From contig CAWCVB010000001.1 in the NCBI GenBank assembly GCA_963798915.1, positions 224,001-288,000 on the forward strand: 64,000 nt of DNA, in the 5' to 3' direction. Below are positions 6,882 to 34,206 of the stretch, piece after piece. The position numbers were made by a program, and so were the translations under genes. The DNA comes from an uncultured Gemmatimonadales bacterium. Lineage in GTDB: Bacteria > Gemmatimonadota > Gemmatimonadetes > Gemmatimonadales > GWC2-71-9. The notes under the pieces were generated by a model. That model was not told the DNA's origin, did not search any database, and was given only the letters and a program-made list of their open reading frames with translations. Within the stretch, counting starts at the first letter, position 1. The number at the start of each line of letters is the position of its first letter.

Positions 6882-6914
6882 TCGGCCGGAGATCCGGAGG
6901 TACCCCTGTTCGCA

Positions 6915-9821
<2,907 letters not shown>

Positions 9822-9862
9822 CACGTCCGGAGGCCACCCATGCTCTGGCATTCCGCCAACGG

Positions 9863-9892
9863 TGTCCGGTTCCCGAAGCGAAATCCGTTCTC
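9863..9892 (+). promoter_or_regulatory. Putative ECF-sigma promoter TGTCCGGTT-N14-CGTTCTC
   Basis: Matches 6132-6161 on the minus strand; 75 nt upstream of the RCC1 gene. Confidence 0.65.
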
Positions 9893-9967
9893 CCTCTCAC
9901 CTCGATCGCGACGATCGCGTGCCCGCCACCGCCGCGCGAGTCGGATCACCACGACGGGAGGAGAGAG

Positions 9968-11167
9968 ATGGTCAGCACGATTCAGAGGACATGCGCCGGC
10001 AGGATTCCGGCGGTTATCGTCGCGGCGCTCATCGCCGGTGCCTGCAGCCAGGAAGCGCCGACCGGGCCCGAGCAGCCGGCCCTGAGCGCGGCTCAGTTCC
10101 CGATCACCGGCTTCGAGCTCGCTTCCGTAAGCGCCAGCATCTTTCACACCTGCGGTGCCACCAAGAGCGGCCAGGCATTCTGCTGGGGGTCGAATGTCTT
10201 CGGCCAGTTGGGCGACGGGACGACCACGAACAGCAACGTGCCGGTGGCGGTGGCCGGCGATCTTCAGTTCACCTCCGTGAGCGTGGGCGGACATTTCTCC
10301 TGTGGTGTCACCAAGGGCGGCCAGGCGCTCTGCTGGGGAGAGAATGGCCTTGGCCAGTTGGGCGACGGGACGACCACGAACAGCAACGTGCCGGTGGCGG
10401 TGGCCGGCGATCTTCAGTTCACCTCCGTGAGCGCGGCCGGAACTCACTCCTGCGCTGTGACCAAGGGCGGCCAGGCGCTCTGCTGGGGAGGGAATGGCGT
10501 TGGCCAGTTGGGCGACGGGACGACCACGAGCAGCAACGTGCCGGTGACGGTCTCCGGCGGCTTCCAGTTCGCCTCCGTGAGCGCGGGCGATGGGCACTCC
10601 TGCGGCATCACCAAGGGCGGCCAGGCGCTCTGCTGGGGAGGGAATGGCGTTGGCCAGTTGGGCGACGGGACGACCACGGACAGTAACGTGCCGGTGGCCG
10701 TCTCCTCCGCCTTTCAGTTCACCTCCGTGAGCGCGGGCGTTCCCTACACCTGCGGCGTCACCAAGGGCGGCCAGGCGCTCTGCTGGGGGGCCAATATCTC
10801 CGGCCAGCTGGGCGACGGGACGACCACGAGCAGCAACGTGCCGGTGGCGGTCTCCGGCGACTTCCAGTTCGCCTCCGTGAGCGCGAGCAATAATGCGCAC
10901 TCCTGCGGCGTTACCAAGGGCGGCCAGGCGCTCTGCTGGGGATTCAATAGCTCTGGCCAGTCAGGCGACGGGACGACTGCGGACAGCAACGTGCCGGTGG
11001 CGGTCTCCGGCGGCTTCCAGTTCGCCTCCGTGAGCGCGGGCAAACTCTACACCTGCGGCGTCACCAAGCAGCTCGGCACCTGGTGCTGGGGGCAAAACGA
11101 TTTTGGCGAGTTGGGCAACGGCACCAACGTGGGCTCGCTGGGTCCCTCGCCAGTCGCCACGCCCTGA
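9968..11167 (+). CDS. RCC1/BLIP-II repeat lipoprotein (7-blade propeller)
   Basis: Lipobox IAGAC; seven ~50-aa repeats [30 protein letters not shown]. Confidence 0.93.
10110..11130 (+). repeat. Intragenic ~150-bp tandem repeats encoding RCC1 blades
   Basis: Near-identical ccaagggcggccaggcgctctgctgggg and ggcgacgggacgaccacg recur with ~150-nt period. Confidence 0.9.
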
Positions 11168-15042: not shown

Positions 15043-16878
15043 ATGGAAATCTTCCGCTCGCCCCGTGTCACCCTGATCGGCCGCCCGCAGTTCGTCGAGC
15101 CGGCCCACCTTCCGGTCACCTGGCAGGGCGACTCGAGCGATGGCGAGCGACTGGCCGAATTTGCCGGTCGGCTCTGCTACATGAGCCAGCGCAATCCGGC
15201 CAATCGCACCACGGCGGAGTACCTGCAGAACATCCTGAAGCAGGGCCACGGCTCGGTCTTCGAGCACGCTCAGTACGTGCTCCTGGTCGAGGGGATTTCA
15301 CGCAGTTGCAGCCATGAGCTGGTGCGACACAGGGCTGGCTTTGGTTACTGCCTCGCGGGTGATACTGAGATCTACAGTGAGCATCGCTGGGGCAATCGCC
15401 GGAATGGCACCAGGCGGCGGACGATCCGGGACATCTTCGAGATGAGCAAGACTGCGCATGGCAGGTCTCGGCTGAAGCTCTTGCGGCTCCGGTCTCTCGA
15501 TGAGAAGTCCGGCGCTTTTACCGTCGGCAAGGTGAGGGCGGTAGCTCATTCGGGCACCAGGCCGGTATTCCGGGTGGAACTCGAGGACGGCAAGGCCGTT
15601 ACCTGCAGCAAGGATCACCGGTTCCTCACCCCAACGGGCTGGCGACGCCTGGAGGATATCGTAGGTCTCGGAATGACCAACGAGGGGACCGCCACGTGGA
15701 CGCGGCGGGACACCGAGATCATGGTCAACGGGATCCCTGCAGTTCATGACCGGGACTGGCTGTTCCGCCACTACGTCGAGCTGAATCTCTCTCAGAAGGA
15801 GATCGGCGAGATCGCGGGAGTATCCCACCATACAGTACGGAGCTGGGTGCGACGGAACGGCCTGCAAAAGCCACTCGGGTCCTGGACAGTGGGTCGAGAG
15901 CCGTGGAATAAAGACCGCCGATACAGGGCCGGCTGGCACCACTCTACTGAGACGCGCGCGCAACTGAGTGCGAATAAACTGGGGGCACGTAATCCCCAAT
16001 GGCGAGGCGGCACCACCCGGCAAGGTGTTGCAATTCGCAAGATGGCAATGAAGCACCGAACCATCGTGTATCAACGTGACGATTACACCTGTAGGCTTTG
16101 CGAATGCCGCGGCGGCCGGCTGACGCTCCATCATCTGCTACCCATCTGGCTGCGGCCGGACCTGGCCGCAGACATCGACAACCTGACGACACTCTGCCGC
16201 AGTTGCCACCACTCGCTCAATGGACGCGAACTGGAGTACGTCGAGCGGCTCGGAGCGAGGCTGGAGGCGTCCGCATTGGCGACCACACCCCAAAAGGGCC
16301 GTGGCAATCTCATGGTTCCCCGGCCCCGTCGGATCGTGCAGGTCACCTACGCCGGTGAGCAGGAGACTTTCGACCTCGAGACGGAGGGACCAAACCACAA
16401 TTTCGTGGCCAACGGTATCGTCACCCATAACTCCCAGCTTTCCCAGCGCTACGTGGACGAGTCCCATGCCGCCTTCGTCATGCCGCCCGCCATCCAGGGC
16501 GACGCCGAGCTGGAGCGGGATTGGGAGACGCAGGTAACCGACGCCCAGGCCGCCTATGTCAGGGCTGTCGAGCATCTCATGACGCGCTATGAGTGGGTGG
16601 AGAGCAAGGTCCACCGCCGGAAGATGGCGCGCGAGGCGGCGCGCAGTGTGCTGCCCAACGCCACTGAGGTGAAGATCGTGGTCAGCGCCAATGTCCGGGC
16701 TTGGCGCACCATGCTCGAACTCCGGCTTGGCGAGGGAGCGGAACTCGAAATCCGGCGCCTGGCAGTCGAGATCCTGGCGGCACTCAGAACCGAAGCGCCG
16801 CACCTCTTCGGCGACTTCGAGATCTACCGCGCCGACGATGGCGCCGACGCCGGACGGGTCGGATTCCACAAAGTCTGA
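15043..16878 (+). CDS. thyX: FAD-dependent thymidylate synthase ThyX, intein-containing
   Basis: AGRLCY, GHGSVFEH, ISRSCSHELVRHR...SQLSQRY, AREAARSVLPNA; 250-aa extein. Confidence 0.95.
   Translation: MEIFRSPRVTLIGRPQFVEPAHLPVTWQGDSSDGERLAEFAGRLCYMSQRNPANRTTAEYLQNILKQGHGSVFEHAQYVLLVEGISRSCSHELVRHRAGFGYCLAGDTEIYSEHRWGNRRNGTRRRTIRDIFEMSKTAHGRSRLKLLRLRSLDEKSGAFTVGKVRAVAHSGTRPVFRVELEDGKAVTCSKDHRFLTPTGWRRLEDIVGLGMTNEGTATWTRRDTEIMVNGIPAVHDRDWLFRHYVELNLSQKEIGEIAGVSHHTVRSWVRRNGLQKPLGSWTVGREPWNKDRRYRAGWHHSTETRAQLSANKLGARNPQWRGGTTRQGVAIRKMAMKHRTIVYQRDDYTCRLCECRGGRLTLHHLLPIWLRPDLAADIDNLTTLCRSCHHSLNGRELEYVERLGARLEASALATTPQKGRGNLMVPRPRRIVQVTYAGEQETFDLETEGPNHNFVANGIVTHNSQLSQRYVDESHAAFVMPPAIQGDAELERDWETQVTDAQAAYVRAVEHLMTRYEWVESKVHRRKMAREAARSVLPNATEVKIVVSANVRAWRTMLELRLGEGAELEIRRLAVEILAALRTEAPHLFGDFEIYRADDGADAGRVGFHKV
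15349..16431 (+). mobile_element. Intein (361 aa) with HTH, NUMOD3-like motifs and HNH homing endonuclease
   Basis: Begins CLAGDT after RHRAGFGY; block B CSKDHRF; ends FDLETEGPNHNFVANGIVTHN before Ser; internal RDDYTCRLC...HH...NLTTLCRSCH. Confidence 0.93.
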
Positions 16879-20920: not shown

Positions 20921-21014
20921 GTCATTCCCGCGAAAGCGGGAATCCATGAGGGCTCACCCGGACCAAGTCGCCATGAGCGAGCCTCTCATGGACCCCCGCC
21001 TGCGCGGGGGTGAC
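20921..21014. repeat. 94-bp GTCA...TGAC double-hairpin repeat (CGTC-tagged, dRS3-like)
   Basis: GTCATTCCCGCGAAAGCGGGAATCCAT...ATGGACCCCCGCCTGCGCGGGGGTGAC; inverted homolog at 53039-53132. Confidence 0.85.
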
Positions 21015-21046
21015 GATCGGACGAGCGTCGGCCCTCTCGACCTCCC

Positions 21047-21160
21047 GACCCTCGACCCTCGACCCTCGACCCTCGACCCTCGACCCTCGACCCTCGACCC
21101 TCGACCCTCGACCCTCGACCCTCGACCCTCGACCCCTCGACCCCTCGACCCCTCGACCCC
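21047..21160. repeat. (GACCCTC)12 followed by (GACCCCTC)3
   Basis: Counted directly. Confidence 0.95.
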
Positions 21161-21175
21161 GCCACCCGCCACCGC

Positions 21176-22735
21176 CTACCGCCTCCACTCCGGCAGCGTC
21201 GCCAGCCAGGCATACGGATCAATGGTCACATTGGTAATGTCGCGCCGGAAGGCCGATGCGCTCATCGTGGTATAGAGAAAGATGGCAGGCGCGTCGGCGT
21301 TGAGCGCGGATAGGGCCTCTCGATAGAGCGGCCCAGCCACGGCGGTGTCGCTGGTGCTGCCGGCCAGGGTCAGCAGCGAGTCCACGCCAGGATTGTCATA
21401 GTGCCCGTAGTTCTCGGACTCGAACCCCGAGCGGCCCCACTGTTCCGCCAGTCCGCGCATGGTCGGCTCATCCAGATAGGCGCCGATATAGCTGTCAAAC
21501 TTTCCCTGCGCCAGTCGCTCCTGAAAAACCGGGAAATCCACCACCGTGATCGTCGCCGCTGCGCCGACTCGCCGCCAGGCTTCCTGCAGGGCTTCAGCGA
21601 TGCGCCGGCGGGTGGGGCTGGTGGACGGAACCAGGATGTCGAACTCGTAAGGGCGCACGGCCGTGCGCTGCGCGCCGAGCGCTGAGCGTGCCGCTGCCGT
21701 ATCGAACCGCACCTGATCGATCCCCGTCTCCCCGATCCACGCCAGAGAAGACGTCGGACCCGCGGGCGCATGCGCGTCGGACCCGAACGCGTTCCGCGCA
21801 ATGGCGTTGCGGTCCACCGCCGCCGCCAGCGCCCGCCGCACCTCCCGGCTGCGCAGCGCCCGGTTCGGCGAGGCAAGATTGAAGGCAAGAAATCCATAGA
21901 CCGCGGAGGGATAGCGCTCCACCCGGAAGGCGGTGTCCGTCTCCACCCGCGCAGTCCGGTCCGGCGTCATCAGCACTTCGAGCAGATCGGCTTCGTGGGC
22001 AAGCACCAGGTTGAGCGCGGCATCGGGATCCTGGGTAAACCGGAAGACGACGGTGCCGATGCTGGACGGCTGGGTGGCTGGACGGCTGGATGGCTGGCCG
22101 GTCGCGGCGAGCGTCAGCGCTTCGCCTCGCCGCCAGGAAATGACTCGGTATGGCCCGCTGCCCACCAGGTGCGCCACCGCGGTGTCCGCCCCCCAGTTCT
22201 CGCGGGGGATCCCGGCCCAGACATGCTCGGGGATGACGCGCACGTGGTAAGTCGCGTCATAGAGTTGCTCAGGTGACGCATGCGGAAAGGTGACCCGTAC
22301 CGTGAGCGAGTCTTCCGCCGTGAGTTCGAGCGGCGCCACGGCCGAGCGGCCGACCGCGTCCACCATGCTGTCGCTGTAGACGTCGAACGAGAAGACGACG
22401 TCGCGCGCGGTGACCGGCATGCCGTCCTGCCAGGCCGCACCGGGACGGAGGTGAAAGCGCCAGCTGAGCGAGTCCACTCGCTCCCATCGCTCGGCGAGTG
22501 CAGGGCGATAGGCCGCGGTGTCGATGCTGGCGCTGCCGGGCGCCAGGTCGGCAAGACGCTCCCAGACCAGGTCACCCACGTCCCGCCCCACTGATTCGTA
22601 GGTGAGAGGCGGCAGCACCGAGGGCGGCTCGCCGACCGCCGCGACAACTACGGTCCCGGTGCCGGGCCGTTCACCTGGGGCGCACGCCGCCAGGCAGAGC
22701 AACAGCAGGGCCGCCGTCCGGGCGCCGCCGTGCAT
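21176..22735 (-). CDS. Peptide ABC transporter substrate-binding lipoprotein (family 5)
   Basis: Lipobox CLAAC, PALAERW, WQDGMPVTARDVVFS, VGSGPY; start reassigned to 22735. Confidence 0.9.
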   Translation of the reverse strand: MHGGARTAALLLLCLAACAPGERPGTGTVVVAAVGEPPSVLPPLTYESVGRDVGDLVWERLADLAPGSASIDTAAYRPALAERWERVDSLSWRFHLRPGAAWQDGMPVTARDVVFSFDVYSDSMVDAVGRSAVAPLELTAEDSLTVRVTFPHASPEQLYDATYHVRVIPEHVWAGIPRENWGADTAVAHLVGSGPYRVISWRRGEALTLAATGQPSSRPATQPSSIGTVVFRFTQDPDAALNLVLAHEADLLEVLMTPDRTARVETDTAFRVERYPSAVYGFLAFNLASPNRALRSREVRRALAAAVDRNAIARNAFGSDAHAPAGPTSSLAWIGETGIDQVRFDTAAARSALGAQRTAVRPYEFDILVPSTSPTRRRIAEALQEAWRRVGAAATITVVDFPVFQERLAQGKFDSYIGAYLDEPTMRGLAEQWGRSGFESENYGHYDNPGVDSLLTLAGSTSDTAVAGPLYREALSALNADAPAIFLYTTMSASAFRRDITNVTIDPYAWLATLPEWRR

Positions 22736-23085
22736 CACCGGGAGTCTGGCACTGGCCGCAGGGCCGCCACGATGCGTTCGGCCCGTTCTGCCAACATGCC
22801 AATCTCCTTGTGGCTGGTGCGAAGCTTCCCCGCGAGGATGTCCACGTGGAGCGCGTCGAGGATCTCGATGGCGCGGCGAAGCCGGAAGCGCTCCAGCGTG
22901 CTGACCGGATCGGGATTGTTGGATGCAGACAGAATGGCCCAGAGACGCAGGCGAAGGTCGTCCACGCCTGACTTGAGGTCCTGCACACCCGACATGGGCA
23001 CCGATTTGGCCTGCATGCGCTGCTCGATGGCCTGCAGCGCAGCACGCATCTTCTGGAGCTCCTGGTTCACGTCTCCTGGAGTCAT
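22735..23085 (-). CDS. Hypothetical helical protein, 116 aa
   Basis: Gene-like composition; TGATG stop/start overlap with the SBP gene. Confidence 0.7.
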   Translation of the reverse strand: MTPGDVNQELQKMRAALQAIEQRMQAKSVPMSGVQDLKSGVDDLRLRLWAILSASNNPDPVSTLERFRLRRAIEILDALHVDILAGKLRTSHKEIGMLAERAERIVAALRPVPDSR

Positions 23086-23149
23086 GCGGCCTTCTGTCTG
23101 TGAGGATGCTCGAAGCTAGTCGAGGTACCTCCATCCTCAAGGGGCGATG

Positions 23150-24751
23150 TCAGGCCGCCTGGCGCTGCATGAAGCCGCAGAACGTGTCGAACACGTCCGG
23201 GCGCCACCAGTTCCGCGTTGCTTCCATGCGGGCGAGTGCCTGAGCGCTGCTCATGGCCGGCCGGTAGCTGCGGGTCGTGGTCAGGGCGTCGTACACGTCC
23301 ACGATGCAGATCACCTGTGCCGCCAGGGGAATCTCGTCGCCCGCCAGCCGGTCAGGATAGCCGCTGCCGTCGTATTTCTCGTGATGCCAGCGGATGATCG
23401 GCTTGATGTCCCATGGAAAATCCACCGTCGCCAGCAGCTCGACACCCCAGTCCGGATGCCTGCGGATCACGTCGAACTCGTCGTCAGTGAGCCGGCCTGG
23501 CTTGTTCAGGATCTCGTGCGGCACCCGGACCTTCCCGAGATCATGGAGATAGGCGCCGAGGCGGAGCGCGGTCAGCGCATCGTCATCCATGCCAAGGGCG
23601 GTGCCAAGTCGCACGCCCAGATCGGCCACCCGCTCGCAATGCCCGAAGGTGTAACTGTCCGCCGATTCGATGGACTGACCCCAGTCGCGCACCACCGCCA
23701 GGTAGGTTCCTTCGAGCCGGGTGACCTTGCCGCTGATGTCCACCAGCTCGCGTCGGGCATCGAGCCGGCGAAAGAGACGGTGGGCCGTGTTCAGCGATCG
23801 CAGAGCCTCCTGGTTGCGCCCGGTCGCCTGGTAGAGCATCGCCAGCTCTCGGGTGGTCTCCGCTTCGCTGAGCACCGACCCGGTGGCAATGGCAAGCTCG
23901 ACGGCGGTGCGCAGCCGTGATTCCGCGAGCTGGATCCGCCCGGTCTCGCGATAGATGCGCCCGATGATCTGGTAGGCATCAGCTTTATCAATCCGCGAGT
24001 CCATCTCATTGAAGATGCCCAGCGCCTGCTCGGCACTGGGCATCGCCATGTCGTATCGCTGGCGCGAGGCGAGCACATCGGCACGGTTCAGCAGGACGAG
24101 TCCACGCAGGTGAACGTTACCAAGCTCCTCCGACAGTTGGAGGCTGCGCACGTAATGGGCGTCGGCCTGCTCGTATTCACCACGGTCGGCGTGCAGCATG
24201 CCGAGATTGTGCTCCAGCTGGGCCCGGCCCGGCTTGTTCCCGGCGGCGTCGTAGGCCGCCAGCGCCCGCTCGTAGTGGGCCAGGGCTCCGTCGTGATCGC
24301 CCTGGATGGTGGCCAGGATGCCCAGGTTCTGCTCCACCTTGCCGCGCACCGCGTCGTGCCTTCCACCCAGGACCAGCGCCCGCTGGAAGCGGCGCCGGGC
24401 CGAATCGATCGAGCCCTGCTCAACGTCAAATCCGGCGAGCGCGTTGAGGGCGTTGGCCGCGCGAAGGTCGTCGTTCAGTTCTGTCGCCAGCCCCAGACTG
24501 CGCTGGGCCAGCTCCTGCGCCCGCACCTTTTCATCACGGTGATGGCAGACCACCGCCAGTTGCCGGAGGGCGTCTGCCGTCAGCGAGGGTTGATGGTCCC
24601 GACTTGCGGCGTCGAGCGCCGCTTCGAGCGCGGCGGCCGCTTCAGCCAGCGCGCCGGAGCGCATGTGTGACTCCACGGTCGCCAACAGCTCGGCCGCCCG
24701 CCCCGGAGGCGCGGGACGAACGACCGAATCCGGCGGGCCGCTGGAGATCAC
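23150..24751 (-). CDS. TPR-repeat HD-GYP phosphodiesterase
   Basis: About 300 aa of TPR-like helices then YTFGHCERV, HDLGK, HHEKYDGSGYP, DVYDALT. Confidence 0.92.
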   Translation of the reverse strand: MISSGPPDSVVRPAPPGRAAELLATVESHMRSGALAEAAAALEAALDAASRDHQPSLTADALRQLAVVCHHRDEKVRAQELAQRSLGLATELNDDLRAANALNALAGFDVEQGSIDSARRRFQRALVLGGRHDAVRGKVEQNLGILATIQGDHDGALAHYERALAAYDAAGNKPGRAQLEHNLGMLHADRGEYEQADAHYVRSLQLSEELGNVHLRGLVLLNRADVLASRQRYDMAMPSAEQALGIFNEMDSRIDKADAYQIIGRIYRETGRIQLAESRLRTAVELAIATGSVLSEAETTRELAMLYQATGRNQEALRSLNTAHRLFRRLDARRELVDISGKVTRLEGTYLAVVRDWGQSIESADSYTFGHCERVADLGVRLGTALGMDDDALTALRLGAYLHDLGKVRVPHEILNKPGRLTDDEFDVIRRHPDWGVELLATVDFPWDIKPIIRWHHEKYDGSGYPDRLAGDEIPLAAQVICIVDVYDALTTTRSYRPAMSSAQALARMEATRNWWRPDVFDTFCGFMQRQAA

Positions 24752-24752
24752 G

Positions 24753-25346
24753 CTACCATGCCACCGCGTAACGGGAAAAGTGATTCAGCGGCGCAGAGAC
24801 GGTCTCGCCTCGCACGCTGTCCTTGGACTTGAGGACTTCGATCACGTCCAGGTTTTCGTCAGTGTAGACGATCTGCTTCGGCGCCTTGGCCTGCTCGCAG
24901 TTGGAATAGCCCATGGTGAGCGTGGCGGGCTTGCCAAACTTGAGTCCTTCCGGCGCGAAGCGCACCGAGTTCACATCACCCGAGACCTGCTCGGCGCTGA
25001 TCTGGACCCAGGACGACAGCGCTCCGCGGGGGATGTCGAGCGTGCTGGCGCCAAAGCGAATGGTGCCGCCGCTCGGTCCGACCCATTGGCTGGCCTTGTC
25101 GTCGGGCAGCGCGCTGCAGTTCAGCAGGGTCAGCAACCCGTCTACCGTGTTCACGGTGGTGGTCAGAGTGTTATCCACCAGCGTGACGGTGCCACCCAGG
25201 AGGTTGCCGACCAGCGACTGATCGGGACCGCCGAGAACGGGAGCCGGCGGCAGCACCGAGTTGCTCTCCGGTGCGAGCGGTCCATCCGTCGCACAGGAGA
25301 TGACGGCCAGTGCTGCCAGCGCGGCCATCGTGGATCGAAGCAGCAT
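24753..25346 (-). CDS. Lipoprotein with ZU5-like fold ending in HFSRYAVAW
   Basis: Lipobox VISC; VGPSGGTI, LDIPRGAL, FAPEGLKFGKPATLTMGY, NHFS. Confidence 0.75.
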   Translation of the reverse strand: MLLRSTMAALAALAVISCATDGPLAPESNSVLPPAPVLGGPDQSLVGNLLGGTVTLVDNTLTTTVNTVDGLLTLLNCSALPDDKASQWVGPSGGTIRFGASTLDIPRGALSSWVQISAEQVSGDVNSVRFAPEGLKFGKPATLTMGYSNCEQAKAPKQIVYTDENLDVIEVLKSKDSVRGETVSAPLNHFSRYAVAW

Positions 25347-25467
25347 GCGAGCGGACACGGTAACTCCTGTGGGACGGGTGAACGGCCGGGCACCGGTACC
25401 GCAGCGCCCCATCGGGCGCCACCGGACGCTCCAGATTGGGAGCCGGGTGCAGAACGGCAGCCGAAGA

Positions 25468-25483
25468 AGCAACCCTCATGCCC
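25468..25483 (-). promoter_or_regulatory. Putative sigma54 -24/-12 promoter
   Basis: GGGCATGAGGGTTGCT (GG-N10-GC with TTGC) on the minus strand. Confidence 0.65.
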
Positions 25484-25760
25484 GGCTTCATTAACCCGTA
25501 TACTTTCTCGACATGCAGCTGATGAAAGACTCTGTATACTATTGTTAGGCAGGATATTACGATGTTGGCAATCAGTGGCAGCTGTATAATTATTGCCATT
25601 ACAAATTGCTGAGCCGCCGCGTCATGGAGGCGCGAATCCCTCAGCCGCCAGACCACAGGCCGCCTGCGCGCGGGCTGGATCCAGCTCAATCGTTCTCATG
25701 GTGATACGATATGATACTACTTGGCATATATTGTTACAGGACGCCGATCAGGTATGCCAA

Positions 25761-25798
25761 TCGTATTTTCGCAAGTTGTTTGGTGCCTGCGACTTAGA
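25761..25798. promoter_or_regulatory. Conserved motif TCGTATTTT(C)GCAAGT-N15-ACTTAGA
   Basis: Second copy at 42333-42369. Confidence 0.55.
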
Positions 25799-25812
25799 GC
25801 AGTCGTCCCAGA

Positions 25813-25828
25813 AGGCCTGACCCTTGCT
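25813..25828 (+). promoter_or_regulatory. Putative sigma54 -24/-12 promoter
   Basis: AGGCCTGACCCTTGCT (GG-N10-GC with TTGC), 40 nt before the ATG. Confidence 0.55.
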
Positions 25829-25867
25829 CATGGAGGGGTAGTGAACCACAACCCCTATGGAGGCCAC

Positions 25868-26653
25868 ATGCCTGGACGACTCGCTCTCTCATACGCTGGT
25901 GCCGTCGGCACCCTCATCCTTACCGCCGCCTGCGGCTCCACGGCGGTGGACGCCAACGGCGCCGGCACCCTCAATCTGCAGACTGCGACCAGCGGCCAGC
26001 CCGCTATCGCCGCCGCAGAACGGACGCTGGACCTCAATGGTGATGTCCTGGTGATTTCCAGCGTCGAATTAGTGGCGCGCGAAATCGAACTGGAGGGCAG
26101 TGAGGGCAGCTGTGAAGCGGCCACCAGTGCCTCGAGCGACGACTGCAACGAAGTGGAAGTCGGCCCGGTGCTGCTGAGCCTTCCGCTCACGCCCGGCGCA
26201 GCGCAGAACTTCAGCACCGTCGTCAGCGCGGGCACGTTCAATGAAGTCAAGTTCAGGATCGACACGCCGGATGACGACAACAGTGCCGACCTGGCGTTCC
26301 GTGCCTCGCATCCGGAGTTTGAGCACGCCAGTATCCGTGTGATCGGGACCTTCAATGATGTTCCGTTCACCTTTACGTCGGACGTCGAGGCCGAGCAGGA
26401 GATCCATCTCCCGACGCCGATCGTCACCGGTGACGCGGCCGTAGACCTGACGATCTTCGTGGACGTGGATGGGTGGTTCATGTCGGCCGATGGCACCACC
26501 CTCATCGACCCGGCATTGGCCCTTCCGGGAGAGCCCATGCAGGCTCTGGTCGAGGGCAATATCAAGGCCTCATTTCAGGCATTCGAGGATCATGACCACG
26601 ACGGCAGCGATGACAGTGGCCACAGCGGCACTGACGACAGCAGCAACAACTGA
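25868..26653 (+). CDS. Acidic beta-rich lipoprotein
   Basis: SD GGAGG; lipobox LTAAC; D/H/S-rich tail. Confidence 0.8.
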   Translation: MPGRLALSYAGAVGTLILTAACGSTAVDANGAGTLNLQTATSGQPAIAAAERTLDLNGDVLVISSVELVAREIELEGSEGSCEAATSASSDDCNEVEVGPVLLSLPLTPGAAQNFSTVVSAGTFNEVKFRIDTPDDDNSADLAFRASHPEFEHASIRVIGTFNDVPFTFTSDVEAEQEIHLPTPIVTGDAAVDLTIFVDVDGWFMSADGTTLIDPALALPGEPMQALVEGNIKASFQAFEDHDHDGSDDSGHSGTDDSSNN

Positions 26654-26689
26654 CGCGTCCGTGCGTGAGGCAGTCTGCCAGGTTGCCGC

Positions 26690-28033
<1,344 letters not shown>

Positions 28034-28059
28034 ACCCCTGGCCTGACGAGGATCATCGC

Positions 28060-28674
28060 ATGCAACGTTCCACCGTTCGAACCGGACTCTGCAGCCTGGC
28101 CATCATGGCACTGCTGGCGGCTTGCGGCGACTCCACCAGCCCCGACACCCGTCCCGACTCCGGGCTCAACATCCTGCGCCTGGCGGCGAGCGCGCCGCCG
28201 CTGGAAGCATCTGAACTCAGCTTCTATGCGGTGCAGGGGCAGGGACGGGAGGGAATCCTCTATTTCGAGGATGAGAACGGCCAGCGCGGCGACGAGTATC
28301 TGCGCCTCAAGTTCGATGGCGAATCGCTGGTCACCGACGCGACCGGCGCGCTGGTCGCCCCGGGTGACTCGGTGCTGATTCACATCACGGTGGTCGACCC
28401 TGCACGGATCCAGTTCCAATTCGAGCCCGCAGGTATTGTCTTCAACCCGGTGCACATGCCGGAGCTCCGGATTCGTTACGACAAGTCGGATCACGACTTC
28501 AACGAGGACGGGTCGGAGGATTCCGAGGACGCCGACATCGAAGGCCGCCTCGCGCTCTGGCGCCAGGAGACCCTGGGCGGCATCTACGTCAAGCTTCCCA
28601 CGCAGCTGACGGTCGACGTCGATGAAGCCGAAGGCCTGGTCCCCGGCTTCAGCCGCTTCGCGATTGCCTACTGA
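28060..28674 (+). CDS. Lipoprotein, ZU5-like paralog ending in GFSRFAIAY
   Basis: Lipobox LLAAC; FEPAGIVFNP...LRIRY. Confidence 0.75.
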   Translation: MQRSTVRTGLCSLAIMALLAACGDSTSPDTRPDSGLNILRLAASAPPLEASELSFYAVQGQGREGILYFEDENGQRGDEYLRLKFDGESLVTDATGALVAPGDSVLIHITVVDPARIQFQFEPAGIVFNPVHMPELRIRYDKSDHDFNEDGSEDSEDADIEGRLALWRQETLGGIYVKLPTQLTVDVDEAEGLVPGFSRFAIAY

Positions 28675-28681
28675 GTGTGTG

Positions 28682-29581
28682 ATGAGTCCTGACACTCGGC
28701 CCGATGACCCTGGGACACTGCTCCGCGACGCGACCCACCACACGCGGCGGGGCGAACTGGGGCCGGGCTGGCACGAGGCGCGTTTGGCCATGGAGCTGTT
28801 CCGCCTTCGCGGTGATCGCGATGGTCGAATGCGCGCCGTCAACCTGATGGGCGCCATCGCCTGGGAACGCGGGGAACTGGATGCGGCCGATGGCTTCTTC
28901 AGCGATGCCCTCGACCTGGCACAGGAATTGGGCGACCACGTGCTGGGCGCACGCGCCTCCAATAATCTCGCGTCGGTCGCGACCCTCCGCGGCCACCCCG
29001 AGCGCGCGCTCAGCCTGTACCGGCGCGCGCTGCTGGGCTACCAGCGGCTGGGCGACCGACGGGGCCTCGCCGAAACCTGGCACAACCTGGGGCTGACCTG
29101 GCGGTGGATGGGCGATCTGGAGCAGGCCGACGGCGCGGCACGGGAAGCGGTGCGTCATGCCGAGCGCGAAGACAACGCTGCGTTGCTGGCCCTGGCGATC
29201 TCAGGCCGCGCCGAGATTGAAATGCAGCGAGGTGAGTTGCGGGTCGCCGAGCTGGCATTGGGACGCGCCCGTCACCTCGCCGCTTCAGCCGGCGACATTC
29301 TGGGCGTTGCGGAGGCGGACCGTATTCACGCGACCCTGCTGTTGCGCCAAGGCGAAGCAGCCCGGGCGCTGGCCGCCGCCGCGGCCGCGCGGCAGGTCGC
29401 CGAACAACATGCCAGCGCCCTGCTTTCGGCTGAGTGCGCCGCCGTCGCGGCCGTCGCAGCCCGGAAGCTGGGCCTTGGCGCCGAGGCCGAATCGCATGCG
29501 GCGGCGGCGCGTAGCGGTTTCGTCAGCCTGCATGCAACCTATCTGCTCAATCAATTCGAGGAAGACTGGGCGCGCGGCTGA
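28682..29581 (+). CDS. Stand-alone TPR protein
   Basis: AVNLMG, ASNNLA, TWHNLG helical repeats; no signal peptide. Confidence 0.85.
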   Translation: MSPDTRPDDPGTLLRDATHHTRRGELGPGWHEARLAMELFRLRGDRDGRMRAVNLMGAIAWERGELDAADGFFSDALDLAQELGDHVLGARASNNLASVATLRGHPERALSLYRRALLGYQRLGDRRGLAETWHNLGLTWRWMGDLEQADGAAREAVRHAEREDNAALLALAISGRAEIEMQRGELRVAELALGRARHLAASAGDILGVAEADRIHATLLLRQGEAARALAAAAAARQVAEQHASALLSAECAAVAAVAARKLGLGAEAESHAAAARSGFVSLHATYLLNQFEEDWARG

Positions 29582-29936
29582 GTCGGCGGTGCCAGACGAT
29601 CCAGTAGATCACCAGGTTGAAGAGCACCACGAAGATCCCCAGCAGCAGCTGGACCCCGCGGGTCAGGTCATGAGGATAGAGTACCGGCAGGATGTAGTGC
29701 TCGACAAACCCGCCCTGGTAGCCGGCCAGGCCGCCCTGATGCCTCAGCCATTTCTCCAGCGGCGTCAGCGGGCAGATCCAGCCGGCAAATTCAATGAGCG
29801 CGCCCCACACCGCCGCCGGAAGGTGAAACCAGCCAGCACGGCGCCAGCGCAGGGCGAGCAAACCTCCGAAGATGACGAACAGCACAAAGCCGAAGTGCAG
29901 CAGCACCACGACGTCGGCCAGGATGCCGTAGGGCAT
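29547..29936 (-). CDS. DUF2784-family membrane protein
   Basis: HFGFVLFV, CPLTPLE, GFVEHY. Confidence 0.88.
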   Translation of the reverse strand: MPYGILADVVVLLHFGFVLFVIFGGLLALRWRRAGWFHLPAAVWGALIEFAGWICPLTPLEKWLRHQGGLAGYQGGFVEHYILPVLYPHDLTRGVQLLLGIFVVLFNLVIYWIVWHRRLSRAPSLPRID

Positions 29937-32005
29937 TACGCCGGGACGGCAACCTCCTTCTCATTCTCCTCCGCCACTTTGGCGGTGACATCGGGCGGCG
30001 CCTCAGCGTACCCGTGGAAGGCCTGATGATGCGTGCCCCGGCCATGGGTGATCGAATGCAGTGTCGTTGAGTAGCGATAGAGCTCGGACTCAGGCACGAT
30101 CGCGCGCACCTTGATGAGCCGGCCGTCCTGCTCGGTGCCCAGAATCTGACCCCGGCGCGCCGAGAGATCCCCCATCACGTCGCCCAGTACATCGTCCGGC
30201 GACCACACCGTCAGATCCACCAGCGGCTCGAGCAGCACCGGCCGGCACTGCGGCGCCACGTTCCTGAAGCCGAGGATGCCTGCCATCTTGAACGACATTT
30301 CGTTCGAATCCACGTCGTGATAGGAGCCGTCGAAGCACTCGCAGGAAAAGTCCACCATCGGATACCCCGCCACTACGCCGCGCCGGGCGGATTCCTGGAC
30401 GCCGCGATCCACTGCCGGGATGTAGCGATTGGGAATCACGCCGCCCACGATCTTGTCCACGAATTCATAACCTGCCCCTCTGGGCCTCGGCGCCAGGCGA
30501 ATCCAGCAGTCGCCATACTGGCCCCGGCCGCCACTCTGCTTCTTGTGCTTGCCCTGTCCCTCGCCGCGCGCCTTGATGGTTTCACGGTACGCCACTCTGG
30601 GACGGGCCAGCTCGGCATGGACGCCGTACTTCCGCTCCAGCCGGCCGAGGATGGTCTCGAGGTGCCGCTCGCCCATGCCGTGGATCAGGGTCTGGCCCAA
30701 CTCCGAGCTGTATTCGAAATGGAAAGTCGGATCTTCTTCGTGAAGCTTGTGAAGTCCCGCCGCCAGCTTGTCTTCGTCACCGCGGGTCTTCACGGCCACG
30801 GCCGAGGTGGTGGTGGCTTCGGGGAACGGCGTGGGGGCGAGCCGTACCGGATGATCGCGGTGGCAGAAGGTGTCGTTGGTGTGCGTGTCGCGCAGCTTGG
30901 CCACCGTGCCGATATCACCGGCCGCCAGCTGGTCCACCTCGGTGCGGTCGCGCCCCTGCTGCAGCGACAGGTGGTTCAGCTTCTCGGCCACGTCGTGTTC
31001 GGCGTTCCAGACCTCGTCCCCGTTCTTCACGGTGCCGGTGTACAGGCGGAAGAAGCTGACGTCACCGACATGCGGCTCGGAAACGGTCTTGAACACATGA
31101 CCCAGGAGGGGTGGGCGGTCGGCACCCGCAGCGGCGTCCAGTCCCGGAATCGCCGCCTCAGCCGGCGTGGGGAGGAGTTCCACCATCTCGGTCAGTAGCG
31201 CGCGGGTGCCGTAGGTCAGCTCGCCGCTGCCGCAGAAGAGCGGAACGATCTCACCCGCCATCATGGCGCGCTTCATCACCGCGGTGATTTCCTCGCGCGG
31301 CAGGGTCTCGCCTGAGAGGTAACGCTCGATCAGCGCGTCGTCGGTGGCCGCGACCGCTTCGGTGAGCTGCTCGGTGTAGCGGGCTACCCGTTCGGCCGCC
31401 TCCGCCGGCACCTCCTGCTCATCGTATTCGCCGCTCCGGGTACCCTTCTGGTACTCGTGGCACTTGCCGGTGAAGAGGTTGACGATACCGTGGAAGTCCC
31501 GGCCGTCGCCCACCGGCACTTCCACCGGTACCACCTTGGGCGAGAGATGGTCCCGCACGTCCTCGAAGACGCTTTCGAAGTCGGCATGTTCCTTGTCCAT
31601 GGCCGAGACGAAGATGATCCTCGGCAGGTGCAGGCGATCACAGATCTCCCAGACCTTCTCGGTGCCCACCTCAACGCCGGCGCTGCCGGACAGCACCACC
31701 ACGGCGGCATCCGCGGCATAGAGCCCGCCCACCGCCTCGCCGAAATAGTCGAGGTAGCCGGGCGTATCAATCATGTTGATCTTGGTGTCCATCCACTCGG
31801 CGAAGGCAAGGCCAAGACTGATCGAATGCTGGCGCTCAATCTCGTCGGGGGAATAATCGGTGAGGGTGGTGCCATCCTTGATGGAACCGTGGCGGCGGCT
31901 GGAACCGGAAACGAACGCCAGGGCGTCCACGAGCGTGGTCTTGCCGCTGGCGCCGTGACCCACGAACGCCACGTTCCGGATGGCATCGGTGCCATAGACC
32001 TTCAT
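29936..32005 (-). CDS. Elongation factor G-like protein (EF-G2 type)
   Basis: GHGASGKTT, DTPGY, GMGERHL, VAYRETI, KKQSGGRGQYG, DGSYHDVDS. Confidence 0.93.
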   Translation of the reverse strand: MKVYGTDAIRNVAFVGHGASGKTTLVDALAFVSGSSRRHGSIKDGTTLTDYSPDEIERQHSISLGLAFAEWMDTKINMIDTPGYLDYFGEAVGGLYAADAAVVVLSGSAGVEVGTEKVWEICDRLHLPRIIFVSAMDKEHADFESVFEDVRDHLSPKVVPVEVPVGDGRDFHGIVNLFTGKCHEYQKGTRSGEYDEQEVPAEAAERVARYTEQLTEAVAATDDALIERYLSGETLPREEITAVMKRAMMAGEIVPLFCGSGELTYGTRALLTEMVELLPTPAEAAIPGLDAAAGADRPPLLGHVFKTVSEPHVGDVSFFRLYTGTVKNGDEVWNAEHDVAEKLNHLSLQQGRDRTEVDQLAAGDIGTVAKLRDTHTNDTFCHRDHPVRLAPTPFPEATTTSAVAVKTRGDEDKLAAGLHKLHEEDPTFHFEYSSELGQTLIHGMGERHLETILGRLERKYGVHAELARPRVAYRETIKARGEGQGKHKKQSGGRGQYGDCWIRLAPRPRGAGYEFVDKIVGGVIPNRYIPAVDRGVQESARRGVVAGYPMVDFSCECFDGSYHDVDSNEMSFKMAGILGFRNVAPQCRPVLLEPLVDLTVWSPDDVLGDVMGDLSARRGQILGTEQDGRLIKVRAIVPESELYRYSTTLHSITHGRGTHHQAFHGYAEAPPDVTAKVAEENEKEVAVPA

Positions 32006-32296: not shown

Positions 32297-34171
32297 CTAC
32301 CTGTATCCCTGTGCCTGCAACTGAAACAGATCGGCGTAAAGCCCGCCCTGGGCAACCAGCGCCTCGTGCGTACCCTGTTCGGTCAGCCTGCCTTCCTGCA
32401 GCACCAGAATCCGGTCCGCCATCCGGACGGTGGAGAACCGATGCGAAATGAGCACCGCCATCTTGCCGCGGGTGAGTTCCGAGAAGCGGAGGAACACCTC
32501 GTACTCGGCGCGGGCATCGAGCGCCGCGGTGGGTTCGTCCAGCACCAGCAGCTGGGCATCCCGCATGTAGGCGCGGGCCAGCGCCACCTTCTGCCACTCG
32601 CCGCCGGAAAGATCGGCGCCGCCCTCGAAGCGGCGGCCCAGCATCCGTTCATACCCGCCGACCCGGCTCGCCACGCTGTCCGCCAGACTGCGGCGCGCTG
32701 CCTCTTCCACCAGGGCAGCATCGTCCACCCGGCTGATGTCGCCCACCGCCACGTTCTCGCGCAGCAGGAAGTCGTAGCGCACGAAGTCCTGGAAGATGAC
32801 GCCAGCATTCTGCCGGAGGCTTTCGACGTCATACTCCTTGAGGTCCACCCCATCCAGCAGGATGCGCCCTTCGGTCGGGTCGTAGAGCCGGACCAGCAGC
32901 TTGGCCAGGGTGGTCTTCCCCGCACCGTTCTCACCCACCAGTGCCAGTCGCTCTCCGGGTGCAAGACGGAAGGTCAGTCCTTGCACCGCCCAGCGTTCCT
33001 GGCCCGCGTAACGAAAGCCCACGTTCTCGAACGCGAACCCGGTCTGGATCGGCCGGGGCACCGGCACCGGCACTGCGGGAGGCCTCATTCGCGGCTCGAT
33101 TTCGAAAAAGCCGAACAGGTCGTCCAGGTAGAGGCTTTGCTCATAGACCTGGGCCAGCGCCAGCAGCACGCGTTGCAGCAGGTCCCGGCTCTGGCGGAAG
33201 CTCGCGGCCAGGAACGTCAGCGTACCGATGGTGATGAGGCCGGCTGGCGAGCGATACTGGATGACGGCGAGATAGATGATGATTGCGTATGCGGCGTAGT
33301 AGCCCAGCGTGCCCAGCGCGTTCAGCCCAATCGAGACGCCGCTCCGCCTGATGGAAAGCCGGCGGTTGGCCTGGTAGAATTCCCGCGAGAGCCTGTCGTA
33401 TCGACCCACGAAGAAATCCGAAAGCCCGAACAGCTTGAGTTCCTTGGCTGAGATGTCGCTGGCGCCAATGTAGCGGAGGTAATCGAGCTGGCGGCGCTGG
33501 GGTGTCCAGGAAAAAAGCAGCGAGTAACCCAGCGAGGCGTAGTGCGTCTCGCCAAGGAAAGACGGCAACACCGCCACGAGCAGCAGCAGGAGAAGCCAGG
33601 GCACGTAGATGGCGACGGCCGCGGCAATCGAGCCCAACGTGATGAGGTCCTGCGCGGTGCCCAGCAGCAGCGTCACCAGCGCCAGCCGTCCGACGGTCTG
33701 CCGCCGGGCCCGCTCCAGCCGGTCGTAGATGTCGGCGTCTTCCAGCTGCTCGAGGTCGAGCTGGGCGGCATGCCGCATCAGCCGCACGCTGGTCTCGTTG
33801 GCAAACAAGTCGCCCAGCAGGCTCTCGAGCAGCGAGCTGGTCCGGCTTGCCACCGTGGCCAGGAGTGCCAGGCCCAGTTCGCCCGCCAGCAGCAGCGCCA
33901 GGTAGTGCCAGTCGGGCGTCACGCCCCGGGCCCGGCCGGCAACGGCCACCACCACGCCGTCCACGATCAGCTTGCCAATCCAGAGCATCGCGATGGGGAC
34001 GGCGCCGCTCAGGAGCCGGAGCAGGATCACGCCGGTGGCATAGCGCGGCGCGGTCTGCCACACCAGCTTCAGGAGGCGGGGTACGTGCCGCATGGCCCGG
34101 AACCGGCCACGCCACGTCTCTGGCCGGTTGCCGGGCTGAAGCCGGGCGGGCCGGCCGAGCGGAATGCTCAT
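32297..34171 (-). CDS. ABC exporter, fused permease and ATP-binding domains
   Basis: TM region, GENGAGKT, LSGGEWQK, LDEPTA, ISHR. Confidence 0.95.
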   Translation of the reverse strand: MSIPLGRPARLQPGNRPETWRGRFRAMRHVPRLLKLVWQTAPRYATGVILLRLLSGAVPIAMLWIGKLIVDGVVVAVAGRARGVTPDWHYLALLLAGELGLALLATVASRTSSLLESLLGDLFANETSVRLMRHAAQLDLEQLEDADIYDRLERARRQTVGRLALVTLLLGTAQDLITLGSIAAAVAIYVPWLLLLLLVAVLPSFLGETHYASLGYSLLFSWTPQRRQLDYLRYIGASDISAKELKLFGLSDFFVGRYDRLSREFYQANRRLSIRRSGVSIGLNALGTLGYYAAYAIIIYLAVIQYRSPAGLITIGTLTFLAASFRQSRDLLQRVLLALAQVYEQSLYLDDLFGFFEIEPRMRPPAVPVPVPRPIQTGFAFENVGFRYAGQERWAVQGLTFRLAPGERLALVGENGAGKTTLAKLLVRLYDPTEGRILLDGVDLKEYDVESLRQNAGVIFQDFVRYDFLLRENVAVGDISRVDDAALVEEAARRSLADSVASRVGGYERMLGRRFEGGADLSGGEWQKVALARAYMRDAQLLVLDEPTAALDARAEYEVFLRFSELTRGKMAVLISHRFSTVRMADRILVLQEGRLTEQGTHEALVAQGGLYADLFQLQAQGYR

Positions 34172-34206
34172 GCTGGAATGCTAATCATGTCGCTGGAGGA
34201 GTCCGC

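Follow-up and report, generated by a model that had tools for sequence, protein, structure and literature searches.

A gene on the reverse strand of a 64,000-nucleotide (nt) stretch of DNA from an uncultured Gemmatimonadales bacterium (the whole of this stretch is called the window here) encodes a small lipoprotein, P0001, that belongs by its fold and its motif to the ZU5 superfamily. The chain ends exactly seven residues after a His-Phe-Ser (HFS) triad, which is identical to the sites at which PIDD and Nup98 cut themselves. Both the triad and the length of the tail are conserved in a large family of homologs, and most genes of this family are followed directly by a gene for a TPR protein. We propose that P0001 may be a ZU5 domain reduced to a lipid anchor, a beta-sandwich, a self-cleavage site and one last strand. 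No description of such a minimal ZU5 lipoprotein, or of its pairing with TPR, HD-GYP and sigma-54 genes, was found in the literature searched.

Fold, motif and family of the lipoprotein

The gene, its parts and its neighbors are listed in Table 1. The original prediction, made from the letters of the window, had described a lipoprotein that carries the ZU5-like motifs VGPSGGTI, LDIPRGAL and FAPEGLKFGKPATL, in which only the seven residues SRYAVAW would follow a cut at HFS, and whose stop codon lies 1 nt from the start of a TPR-HD-GYP gene. The translation bears out this description. Each of the three motifs is found in it, and the C-terminus reads ...APLNHFSRYAVAW, that is, with NHFSRYAVAW at the end. 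The N-terminus is MLLRSTMAALAALAVISC followed by ATDG, in which we recognized by eye a signal peptide and a lipobox, and the lipobox Cys is invariant in the family. The distance of 1 nt is obtained with the GTG at 24751, which is merely the longest possible start of the TPR-HD-GYP gene; in the closest relative (locus L002) the gap is 3 nt and the start is an ATG. The lipoprotein gene itself has an alternative start, a GTG at 25358, which gives a form of 201 amino acids (aa) that is P0007 of the protein collection. In the whole 3.3-Mb assembly, the site in P0001 is the sole match to HFSxYA.

A structural model of P0001 was built from its alignment with AlphaFold2. The mean predicted local distance difference test (pLDDT) score was 73, with values above 90 across most of residues 80-150 and below 50 at residues 27-30 and 37-69 of the linker. 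The model consists of eleven strands and no helix, and HFS is placed in the turn between the last two strands, 182-189 and 194-196. Foldseek against the PDB, the check that the original prediction had proposed for a ZU5-like fold, returned the ZU5 domain of ankyrin first (E 1.6e-5), the ZU5 domains of UNC5b and ZO-1, and then GAIN domains. Structural comparison with VIA gave Z 11.8 for the ZU5 domain of ankyrin-B (4d8o; root-mean-square deviation 2.6 over 111 aa, model residues 82-197), Z 9.7 for that of ZO-1, Z 9.0 for UNC5b, Z 8.2 for the GAIN domain of CD97, Z 6.0 for the FIIND of rat NLRP1 (chain 850-973) and Z 5.7 for CARD8. In total, 19 chains scored at Z of at least 8, with ZU5 entries leading, which identifies the predicted fold as ZU5-type. 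The alignments to NLRP1, CD97 and UNC5b extend through residue 197, the last of the chain. At the level of sequence profiles, the Pfam ZU5 model (PF00791) matched 28 of 44 family members at E<=10, the best at 3.5e-4 and all of them under the cut-off. A PDB sequence search with the family profile gave a sole match, MakB, at E 1.4, which we took as chance.

Among proteins of comparable length, 484 are related to P0001 at E<=1e-3, and every source name given for them is Gemmatimonadales; an exhaustive search yielded 1137 representatives after clustering at 50% identity. The original prediction had named a failure of homologs to conserve HFS as a result that would speak against it. Of the 267 family proteins that were fetched, 264 carry HFS, and the three without it look truncated. 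Of these 264 proteins, 246 were recognized with the motif regex [x]F[ST]x[YFW]A, all matches to which read HFS, and the other 18 are variants at position +4. The C-terminus lies exactly seven residues past the Phe-Ser bond in 237 of the 246 regex matches, and HFSRYA[VI][AS][YWF] is the C-terminal sequence encoded by 96 of the 97 family genes found across 80 genomic loci. The triad stays invariant down to about 35-40% identity within the family. Residues that never vary across the 44 aligned sequences include C18, C77, C150 and H189-F190-S191-R192-Y193-A194, and since C77 and C150 are both among them, a disulfide between these two is plausible. Even in the longest members (up to 408 aa) the domain is still at the extreme C-terminus, and no fused or longer forms were seen among 8000 candidates scored, although this is weak evidence. 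The family profile matches 75 of 201 Gemmatimonadota genomes and 39 of 98 genera, often with several copies per genome. In its own genome it matches the P0001 gene alone, and a Pfam ZU5 search of this assembly, which is 84.8% complete, gave no match.

A second lipoprotein of the same type, P0002, is encoded in the window. BLAST finds the tail alone in common between P0001 and P0002, whereas hhalign relates the P0001 family (family 1) to the P0002 family (family 2) with a probability of 96% and an E value of 4e-9. The AlphaFold2 model of P0002 (pLDDT 89) gave VIA Z scores of 9.9 with ankyrin ZU5, 8.4 with UNC5b, 7.2 with the GAIN domain of BAI3 and 6.4 with the FIIND of NLRP1. In the loci, 19 of 20 P0002 homologs end in GF[ST]RYA[IL][AS]Y, exactly seven residues past the Phe, and the 20th was mis-extracted. 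The residue after the would-be cut (P1') is exclusively Ser or Thr in family 2, which is the pattern of a nucleophile position.

The family profile also matches, at 1e-8 to 1e-11, seven large proteins of other Gemmatimonadota that are 636-1082 aa long and carry a ZU5 domain at the N-terminus (loci L083-L089, in genomes G167, G067, G052, G038, G179, G147 and G049). The Pfam ZU5 model finds five of the seven at E<=0.01, and three of the seven score above the cut-off. In six of them HFS, SFS or GFS stands at the end of the match, with the chain running well beyond the motif. According to Pfam, the cargo consists of Big_1/Big_2 immunoglobulin-like repeats together with a GDSL lipase in one protein and with a beta-lactamase-family hydrolase in another, of a PQQ propeller in a third, and of DUF7743 or a weak PKD match in two more. 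These seven proteins are candidates for self-released surface enzymes.

TPR partners and the sigma-54 sites

P0003, the product of the 533-codon open reading frame (ORF) behind the lipoprotein gene, matches TPR_12 (6.4e-41) and HD_5 (7.3e-37) in Pfam. Its HD-GYP motif HHExxDGxGYP is present as WHHEKYDGSGYP and is invariant in the P0003 alignment, and the best solved relatives of its HD-GYP part are V-cGAP3 (5z7c, 3e-46) and PmGH (4mcw). The gene behind P0002 encodes a TPR-only protein, P0004. Among solved structures, the TPR domains are closest to LGN/Pins, kinesin light chain and, weakly, RapF (E 2e-6, a generic TPR similarity). No signal peptide was seen in the TPR-HD-GYP and TPR-only proteins of the window or in 58 homologs, so both are taken to be cytoplasmic. 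As judged from these sequences, the two partners are in different compartments, which is a topological problem that the original prediction, with its proposal of SRYAVAW as a ligand or switch for the TPR proteins, had overlooked: with the lipoprotein exported and the TPR proteins in the cytoplasm, the heptapeptide would have to be re-imported to act as a ligand.

The neighboring TPR proteins to which the original prediction had pointed turned out to be part of a conserved pairing. We compared the gene context by tblastn of six cluster proteins against the 80 loci. For the 91 family-1 genes with at least 600 nt of downstream sequence, the gene that comes next on the same strand encodes a TPR protein in 73 cases, is a family-1 paralog in 14 and is neither in four. 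The 73 TPR genes comprise 66 that are P0003-like, with the HD-GYP part visible in 47, and seven that are P0004-like, and the distance to the first aligned TPR residue is at most 65 nt in 64 of them. The 14 genes followed by a paralog belong to tandem arrays of two or three copies, which are then followed by TPR genes. Similarly, a P0004-like TPR-only gene comes after 17 of the 19 P0002 homologs. Each lipoprotein-TPR pair holds together from locus to locus, while the two modules shift their position and orientation to one another.

The lipoprotein and the TPR-HD-GYP protein also occur together. With cut-offs of E<1e-200 for the full-length TPR-HD-GYP ortholog and E<=1e-18 for the lipoprotein, both were found in 50 of the 201 Gemmatimonadota genomes (48 without G057 and G182, which are unpublished), the lipoprotein only in five, the TPR-HD-GYP protein only in five and neither in 141. 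Within genera, the presence and absence of the two vary together.

A sigma-54-type promoter lies upstream of the P0001 gene. In 74 of 76 loci, the stretch upstream of the first gene of family 1 matches the consensus xGGCA[CT]-N5-TTGC at 8/10 or better, compared with 7 of 76 for the reverse complement and 6 of 68 for coding sequence. The genes of the second operon are in the order P0005, P0006, P0002 and P0004; the site upstream of it in the window is weak, but a site of at least 8/10 is present upstream of P0005 homologs in 13 of 14 loci, and in three loci without P0005 it precedes the activator gene. P0005 homologs adjoin the activator gene in the loci. Across the whole window 72 sigma-54-like sites were counted against 73.8 expected, so that the case for sigma-54 lies in the positional conservation across loci. 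Scans for sigma-70 promoters and terminators in 21000..30000 gave nothing above the shuffled expectation.

The activator P0006 has no match to a Pfam receiver domain in its N-terminal part of about 130 residues, and no histidine kinase is encoded in the cluster, so P0006 is probably controlled by protein partners; the TPR-only protein P0004 is the obvious candidate. RpoN is encoded in the genome. Taken together, the conserved sites, the activator and RpoN make the two operons look like one sigma-54 circuit, in which P0006 would activate both. The divergent intergenic region between the operons (25490..25760) is strikingly AT-rich for a high-GC genome and may be the site where the activator binds.

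Table 1. The lipoprotein genes, their parts and their neighbors, in positions of the window
Feature	Position	Strand	Remarks
ZU5-type lipoprotein gene, P0001	24753..25346	-	197 aa; ATG at 25346, TAG 24755..24753; from ORF and translation
Signal peptide and lipobox VISC	25293..25346	-	Cys18 is the would-be lipidated residue, invariant in 44/44 aligned sequences; from sequence
Low-complexity linker, residues ~19-77	25116..25292	-	LLGG/TLxTTV-like repeats; predicted disordered; ends at conserved Cys77
ZU5-like beta-sandwich, residues ~78-197	24756..25115	-	AlphaFold2 model, Foldseek, VIA, sub-threshold Pfam ZU5
His189-Phe190-Ser191, putative autoproteolytic triad	24774..24782	-	would-be scissile bond between F190 and S191; invariant in alignment
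Tail SRYAVAW, terminal beta-strand	24756..24776	-	peptide that any cleavage would free; strand 194-196 in the model
TPR-HD-GYP phosphodiesterase, P0003	23150..24751	-	cytoplasmic; translationally coupled to the lipoprotein gene
Family-5 solute-binding lipoprotein (peptide/nickel type)	21176..22705	-	downstream of the HD-GYP gene; SBP_bac_5 6e-60
Sigma-54-type promoter GGGCATGAGGGTTGC	25469..25483	-	~110-125 nt upstream of the lipoprotein start; 2 mismatches
Weak sigma-54-like site AGGCCTGACCCTTGC	25813..25827	+	upstream of the second operon; scores 7/10
Lipoprotein without known family, P0005	25868..26653	+	gene 1 of the second operon; probable ATG 25868, lipobox TAAC
Sigma-54 enhancer-binding activator, P0006	26690..28033	+	Sigma54_activat 2e-69, AAA_lid_14, HTH_8
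Second ZU5-type lipoprotein, P0002	28060..28674	+	ends GFSRFAIAY, 7 residues past F
TPR-only protein, P0004	28622..29581	+	likely start ATG 28682, 8 nt past the P0002 stop; TPR_12 6e-12

Self-cleavage and the role of the last strand

Rat NLRP1 is cut between F968 and S969, and the first strand after the cut is described as pairing with the ZU5 part and joining the two fragments (bioRxiv 10.1101/2020.08.13.250241). The alignments of our models to this chain end at 973 for P0001 and at 975 for P0002. Counting six residues back puts the Ser at 967 and 969, so that the Ser of P0002 lands exactly on the catalytic S969 and that of P0001 within two residues of it, these positions being precise to about two residues because the alignments are reported as ranges only. 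In the UNC5b alignments the Phe falls at 675 for family 1 and at 677 for family 2 (F197). The H189-F190-S191 turn, with the would-be cut after the Phe, precedes the last strand of the sandwich, within 0-2 residues of NLRP1 S969 and UNC5b L677. According to the published account of PIDD (PMC3210808), this protein is cleaved at HF/S right after each ZU5 domain that it has; the Phe is a buried anchor equivalent to Leu677 of UNC5b and Phe296 of CARD8, and the motif just precedes a long strand that is required for the stability of the fold. ZU5, GPS and the Nup98 domain were unified by Zhang et al. (2012, Biol Direct 7:18, PMC3482391), who predicted that ZU5 acts as a processing autopeptidase of bacterial surface proteins. 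Given the fold, the identical triad and its position, we consider self-cleavage between F190 and S191 the most likely chemistry of P0001, and we would call it fairly probable.

We also compared E164 (family 1) and E170 (family 2) with the catalytic His of FIIND; they stand 27-28 residues before the Ser, as H942 does before S969 in rat NLRP1. The match is one of spacing only, and we regard it as a guess and make no claim on it.

We rationalize these features by a reading to which we give about an even chance: P0001 would be a lipid-anchored, exported, 'cargo-less' member of the ZU5 autopeptidases that cleaves itself and forms that half of a two-gene unit which lies outside the cytoplasm. The signal peptide and its lipobox, a disordered tether and a single ZU5 beta-sandwich would lead up to the HFS turn, placed where PIDD, Nup98, NLRP1/CARD8 and GAIN domains cut themselves, with the final strand SRYAVAW standing alone after it. 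Cleavage would proceed by an N-to-O acyl shift, in which S191 would be the nucleophile, F190, as a buried anchor, would strain the backbone and H189 would assist. After the cut, the heptapeptide would be retained non-covalently as a strand of the sandwich, giving a pre-cut, metastable module. The cytoplasmic half would be the TPR-HD-GYP protein as a cyclic-dinucleotide phosphodiesterase, acting on c-di-GMP or cGAMP, and the unit would be transcribed from the sigma-54 promoter, with the neighboring operon supplying the activator. Because the protein is 'cargo-less', cleavage could alter just one thing, the separability of the last strand; and because the cluster encodes no membrane transducer, release of this strand and its uptake would be the leading candidate for a link to the TPR proteins.

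Several points weigh against this reading. P0001 matches no Pfam or NCBIfam family, and searches with P0001 and P0002 together gave no family at E<=1 save OmpC at 0.14, a chance match. The ZU5 domains of ankyrin, UNC5b and ZO-1, which are the best structural matches, come from proteins that are not known to cleave themselves. Experimental cleavage by any bacterial ZU5 domain was not found in the literature searched, in which the statements of the Aravind group are predictions. The tail is constrained on both faces, with Y, V and W on one and A and A on the other, as a buried structural strand would be. Family 2 has an invariant Gly two residues before the cut (P2) and no invariant His anywhere; it keeps the tail without a His, so conservation of the tail by itself is no proof of catalysis. 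As for the partners, the cut-off of 1e-200 was picked once a gap from about 1e-206 to 1e-147 had become apparent, related genomes cannot count as independent, which is why no statistical test was applied to the co-occurrence, and the wider neighborhood is largely syntenic within the taxonomic order, so that adjacency is weaker evidence than the counts imply.

A rival explanation is that nothing is cut at all. HFS and the tail would then be purely structural, the Phe anchoring the core and the last strand filling out the sheet, and P0001 would be an envelope or surface protein co-regulated with the TPR-HD-GYP protein, an output of the sigma-54 circuit rather than an input. Many ZU5 domains, those of the best matches ankyrin and UNC5b among them, are not known to cleave, the Gly-Phe-Ser/Thr paralog retains its tail without the His, regulators and their targets often share operons, and the region is broadly syntenic, all of which agrees with this explanation. 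On the other hand, HFS matches letter for letter the sites at which PIDD and Nup98 are proven to be cut and persists in family 1 down to about 35-40% identity, P1' in family 2 alternates solely between the two possible nucleophiles, and the large relatives in the same phylum carry the motif at the junction with their cargo, the architecture proposed for processing. Nor does the Gly of family 2 count against catalysis, since the P2 His is nearly dispensable in Nup98 and unneeded for cleavage of CARD8 (PMC3210808). We rate the absence of cleavage as possible but on the unlikely side.

A different question is what becomes of the strand if cleavage occurs. In the models the tail is placed as a strand, with a pLDDT of about 78 in P0001 and 96-97 in P0002, and in the characterized relatives the strand stays in the sandwich, so that a pre-cut yet intact domain is to be expected at rest. 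That the heptapeptide remains bound as a strand, which the original prediction had allowed for as a caveat, is on these models the more likely resting state. The tails are identical between tandem paralogs of family 1 in the 80 loci and nearly identical across both families, a pattern more in keeping with a structural strand than with a specific signal.

The strand may nevertheless be a signal. Upon unfolding or degradation of the domain in the envelope, S-R-Y-A-V-A-[WY] would leave the sandwich, be imported, bind to the concave face of the TPR domain and switch the HD-GYP enzyme; from the second pair, [ST]RYA[IL]AY would act on the TPR-only protein that controls the receiver-less sigma-54 activator driving both operons. 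Such a system would be a Gram-negative analog, with a self-processing, GAIN-like precursor, of the RRNPP systems (Phr-Rap, PapR-PlcR and NprX-NprR), in which the C-terminal 5-8 residues of an exported precursor are the signal, uptake is of the Opp type and the receptor is a cytoplasmic TPR protein. The likeness is by analogy only: a TPR gene stands beside that of an exported would-be precursor and the topology fits, whereas the RRNPP systems belong to Firmicutes and Gram-positive bacteria, their precursors are 40-60 aa long and are processed by external proteases, and their peptides diversify into specific types. The composition of the cluster agrees with a released peptide, as it consists of exported lipoproteins and soluble TPR, activator and HD-GYP proteins with no membrane transducer, and there are two paralogous lipoprotein-TPR pairs. 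In both families the C-terminus lies exactly at +7 and the last residue is aromatic, and the TPR domains resemble peptide-binding ones (those of LGN/Pins, kinesin light chain and RapF). However, tails that are nearly the same in both families and identical in tandem paralogs leave little room for specificity, their burial in the fold fully accounts for their conservation, the strand after the cut stays bound in every characterized relative, and the similarity to RapF is of the generic TPR kind. A family-5 (OppA-type) binding lipoprotein is encoded beside the pair and has homologs in 58 of 80 loci, but no permease genes were found beside it in the window or in four annotated loci, and its adjacency may be plain synteny. 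We set this protein aside as evidence for peptide uptake, as the EF-G, lysine aminomutase, GNAT, ATP-grasp and ThyX genes are also conserved around the cluster. Release, uptake and TPR binding would make the simplest complete circuit, but we think that circuit improbable, and the signaling explanation as a whole is in our view unlikely.

Still less credit is due to the idea that the cytoplasmic TPR proteins bind the free C-terminal tail of the precursor while it is still unfolded and unexported, as a dedicated chaperone or a monitor of export, in the way of the TPR 'carboxylate clamps' that bind C-terminal peptides. TPR domains elsewhere do bind extreme C-termini, the lipoprotein and TPR genes are tightly coupled in translation, and the position of the C-terminus, on an aromatic residue, is strictly fixed. 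Alternatively, the groove vacated in the cleaved lipoprotein would take up the homologous S-x-[YF]-x strand from large ZU5 surface proteins and so anchor them, and the phylum does have such proteins with similar strands after the motif. However, general Sec/Lol export has no known regulated step that could be read out, neither mechanism has a precedent in the literature searched, and none of the data specifically require either of them; we regard both as very improbable.

If P0001 cleaves itself as we favor, its nearest counterparts would be the HFS sites in PIDD and Nup98, with the tethered agonist of GAIN domains or the pre-cut sensor RsgI as possible further ones by analogy. With PIDD and Nup98 it shares HFS at the C-terminal end of a ZU5-type sandwich, before a long strand, with a presumed Ser nucleophile and a Phe anchor as described in PMC3210808; those proteins, however, are eukaryotic, cytoplasmic or nuclear, and yield large fragments, whereas P0001 is a bacterial lipoprotein with seven residues after the putative site. 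The FIIND of NLRP1 and CARD8 (ZU5-UPA, cut in SF-S) resembles our models at Z 6.0-6.4, with alignments that end 4-6 residues past the F968-S969 bond, and, as far as the sources describe it, the first strand after its cut pairs with ZU5 and its P2 residue need not be His. Unlike P0001, in which no equivalent can be assigned, FIIND uses a distant His (H942 in the rat) and a Glu, and its C-terminal fragment is a UPA-CARD effector and not a bare strand. Subdomain B of GAIN is a similar sandwich (Z 7-8) with an H-hydrophobic-S/T site before the last strand, and its Stachel of about seven hydrophobic residues is described as buried until dissociation, whereupon it becomes a ligand (PMC11697300). P0001 nonetheless falls outside the GAIN domains: it lacks both the helical subdomain A and a seven- or eleven-transmembrane part that follows, its P1 residue is Phe and not Leu, and its candidate receptors are TPR proteins in another compartment, the cytoplasm.

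The bacterial ZU5 domains of polymorphic toxins and surface proteins (PMC3482391) belong to the same superfamily and are exported, and the large Gemmatimonadota relatives match the architectures described there. Those proteins have long cargo past the motif and P0001 has none, and they are not reported with TPR, HD-GYP or sigma-54 partners. A bacterial precedent for the logic is RsgI, an extracytoplasmic self-cutting domain that keeps its strand non-covalently and signals by dissociation, and which its authors compare to GAIN (Sci Adv 2023, PMC10328401). According to the same source it differs in its fold and its Asn-Pro site, and it is a transmembrane protein of Firmicutes that feeds regulated intramembrane proteolysis. 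A search with PADLOC assigned the lipoproteins to no defense-system family, and their partners gave only generic TPR, Cas3-HD and RtcR-like AAA matches.

Self-cleavage of ZU5, GAIN and FIIND domains in animals underlies the activation of adhesion G-protein-coupled receptors, the triggering of inflammasomes and the control of the PIDDosome. As the present family is a minimal domain of anchor, sandwich, cut site and strand, it would be a simple system for probing what the cut is for. Its pairing with TPR proteins under sigma-54, without a membrane sensor, suggests a signaling route of which the literature searched has no description, in a widespread but poorly studied soil phylum. If the strand is a signal, the logic of the tethered agonist would reach into bacteria and cyclic-dinucleotide signaling would gain a new type of input. 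If it is moreover released and taken up, the system would signal from periplasm to cytoplasm without a membrane-spanning sensor, as a prokaryotic forerunner of the tethered agonist. If the strand is purely structural, the family would still be a compact model for ZU5 autoproteolysis.

Other features of the window

A small membrane protein of the DUF2784 family (8e-41) is encoded at 29547..29936 (-), between the TPR-only gene and EF-G, and is the sole membrane protein adjoining the cluster in the window. Next to an EF-G paralog, at 32297..34180 (-), lies a gene for a 627-aa ABC (ATP-binding cassette) transporter ATPase protein, which is kept in locus L012 (1-3042) with an HlyD-type adaptor gene beside it; it is possibly an exporter that lies close to the cluster. 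At 6882..11167 (+), a 979-aa protein in which a Ser/Thr kinase is joined to a long TPR_12/TPR_10 array is followed by an RCC1-repeat protein; as far as seen, this further TPR signaling protein of the window is unrelated to the lipoprotein cluster. No Peptidase_S8 (subtilisin) was found among the ORFs of the window that were scanned, and the five S8 genes in the genome are on other contigs.

The ThyX gene at 15043..16878 (+) has 611 codons and is split by an intein with an HNH endonuclease. Pfam finds Thy1 in two stretches, Intein_splicing at 3e-10 and HNH at 1.6e-5, and the homolog in locus L031 is 250 aa long and has no insert. At 21036..21159, between the genes for lysine-2,3-aminomutase and the family-5 binding protein, the 7-bp unit CTCGACC is repeated in tandem 17 times with 95% matches, and yields PSTLDPR-type repeats in spurious ORFs on both strands.

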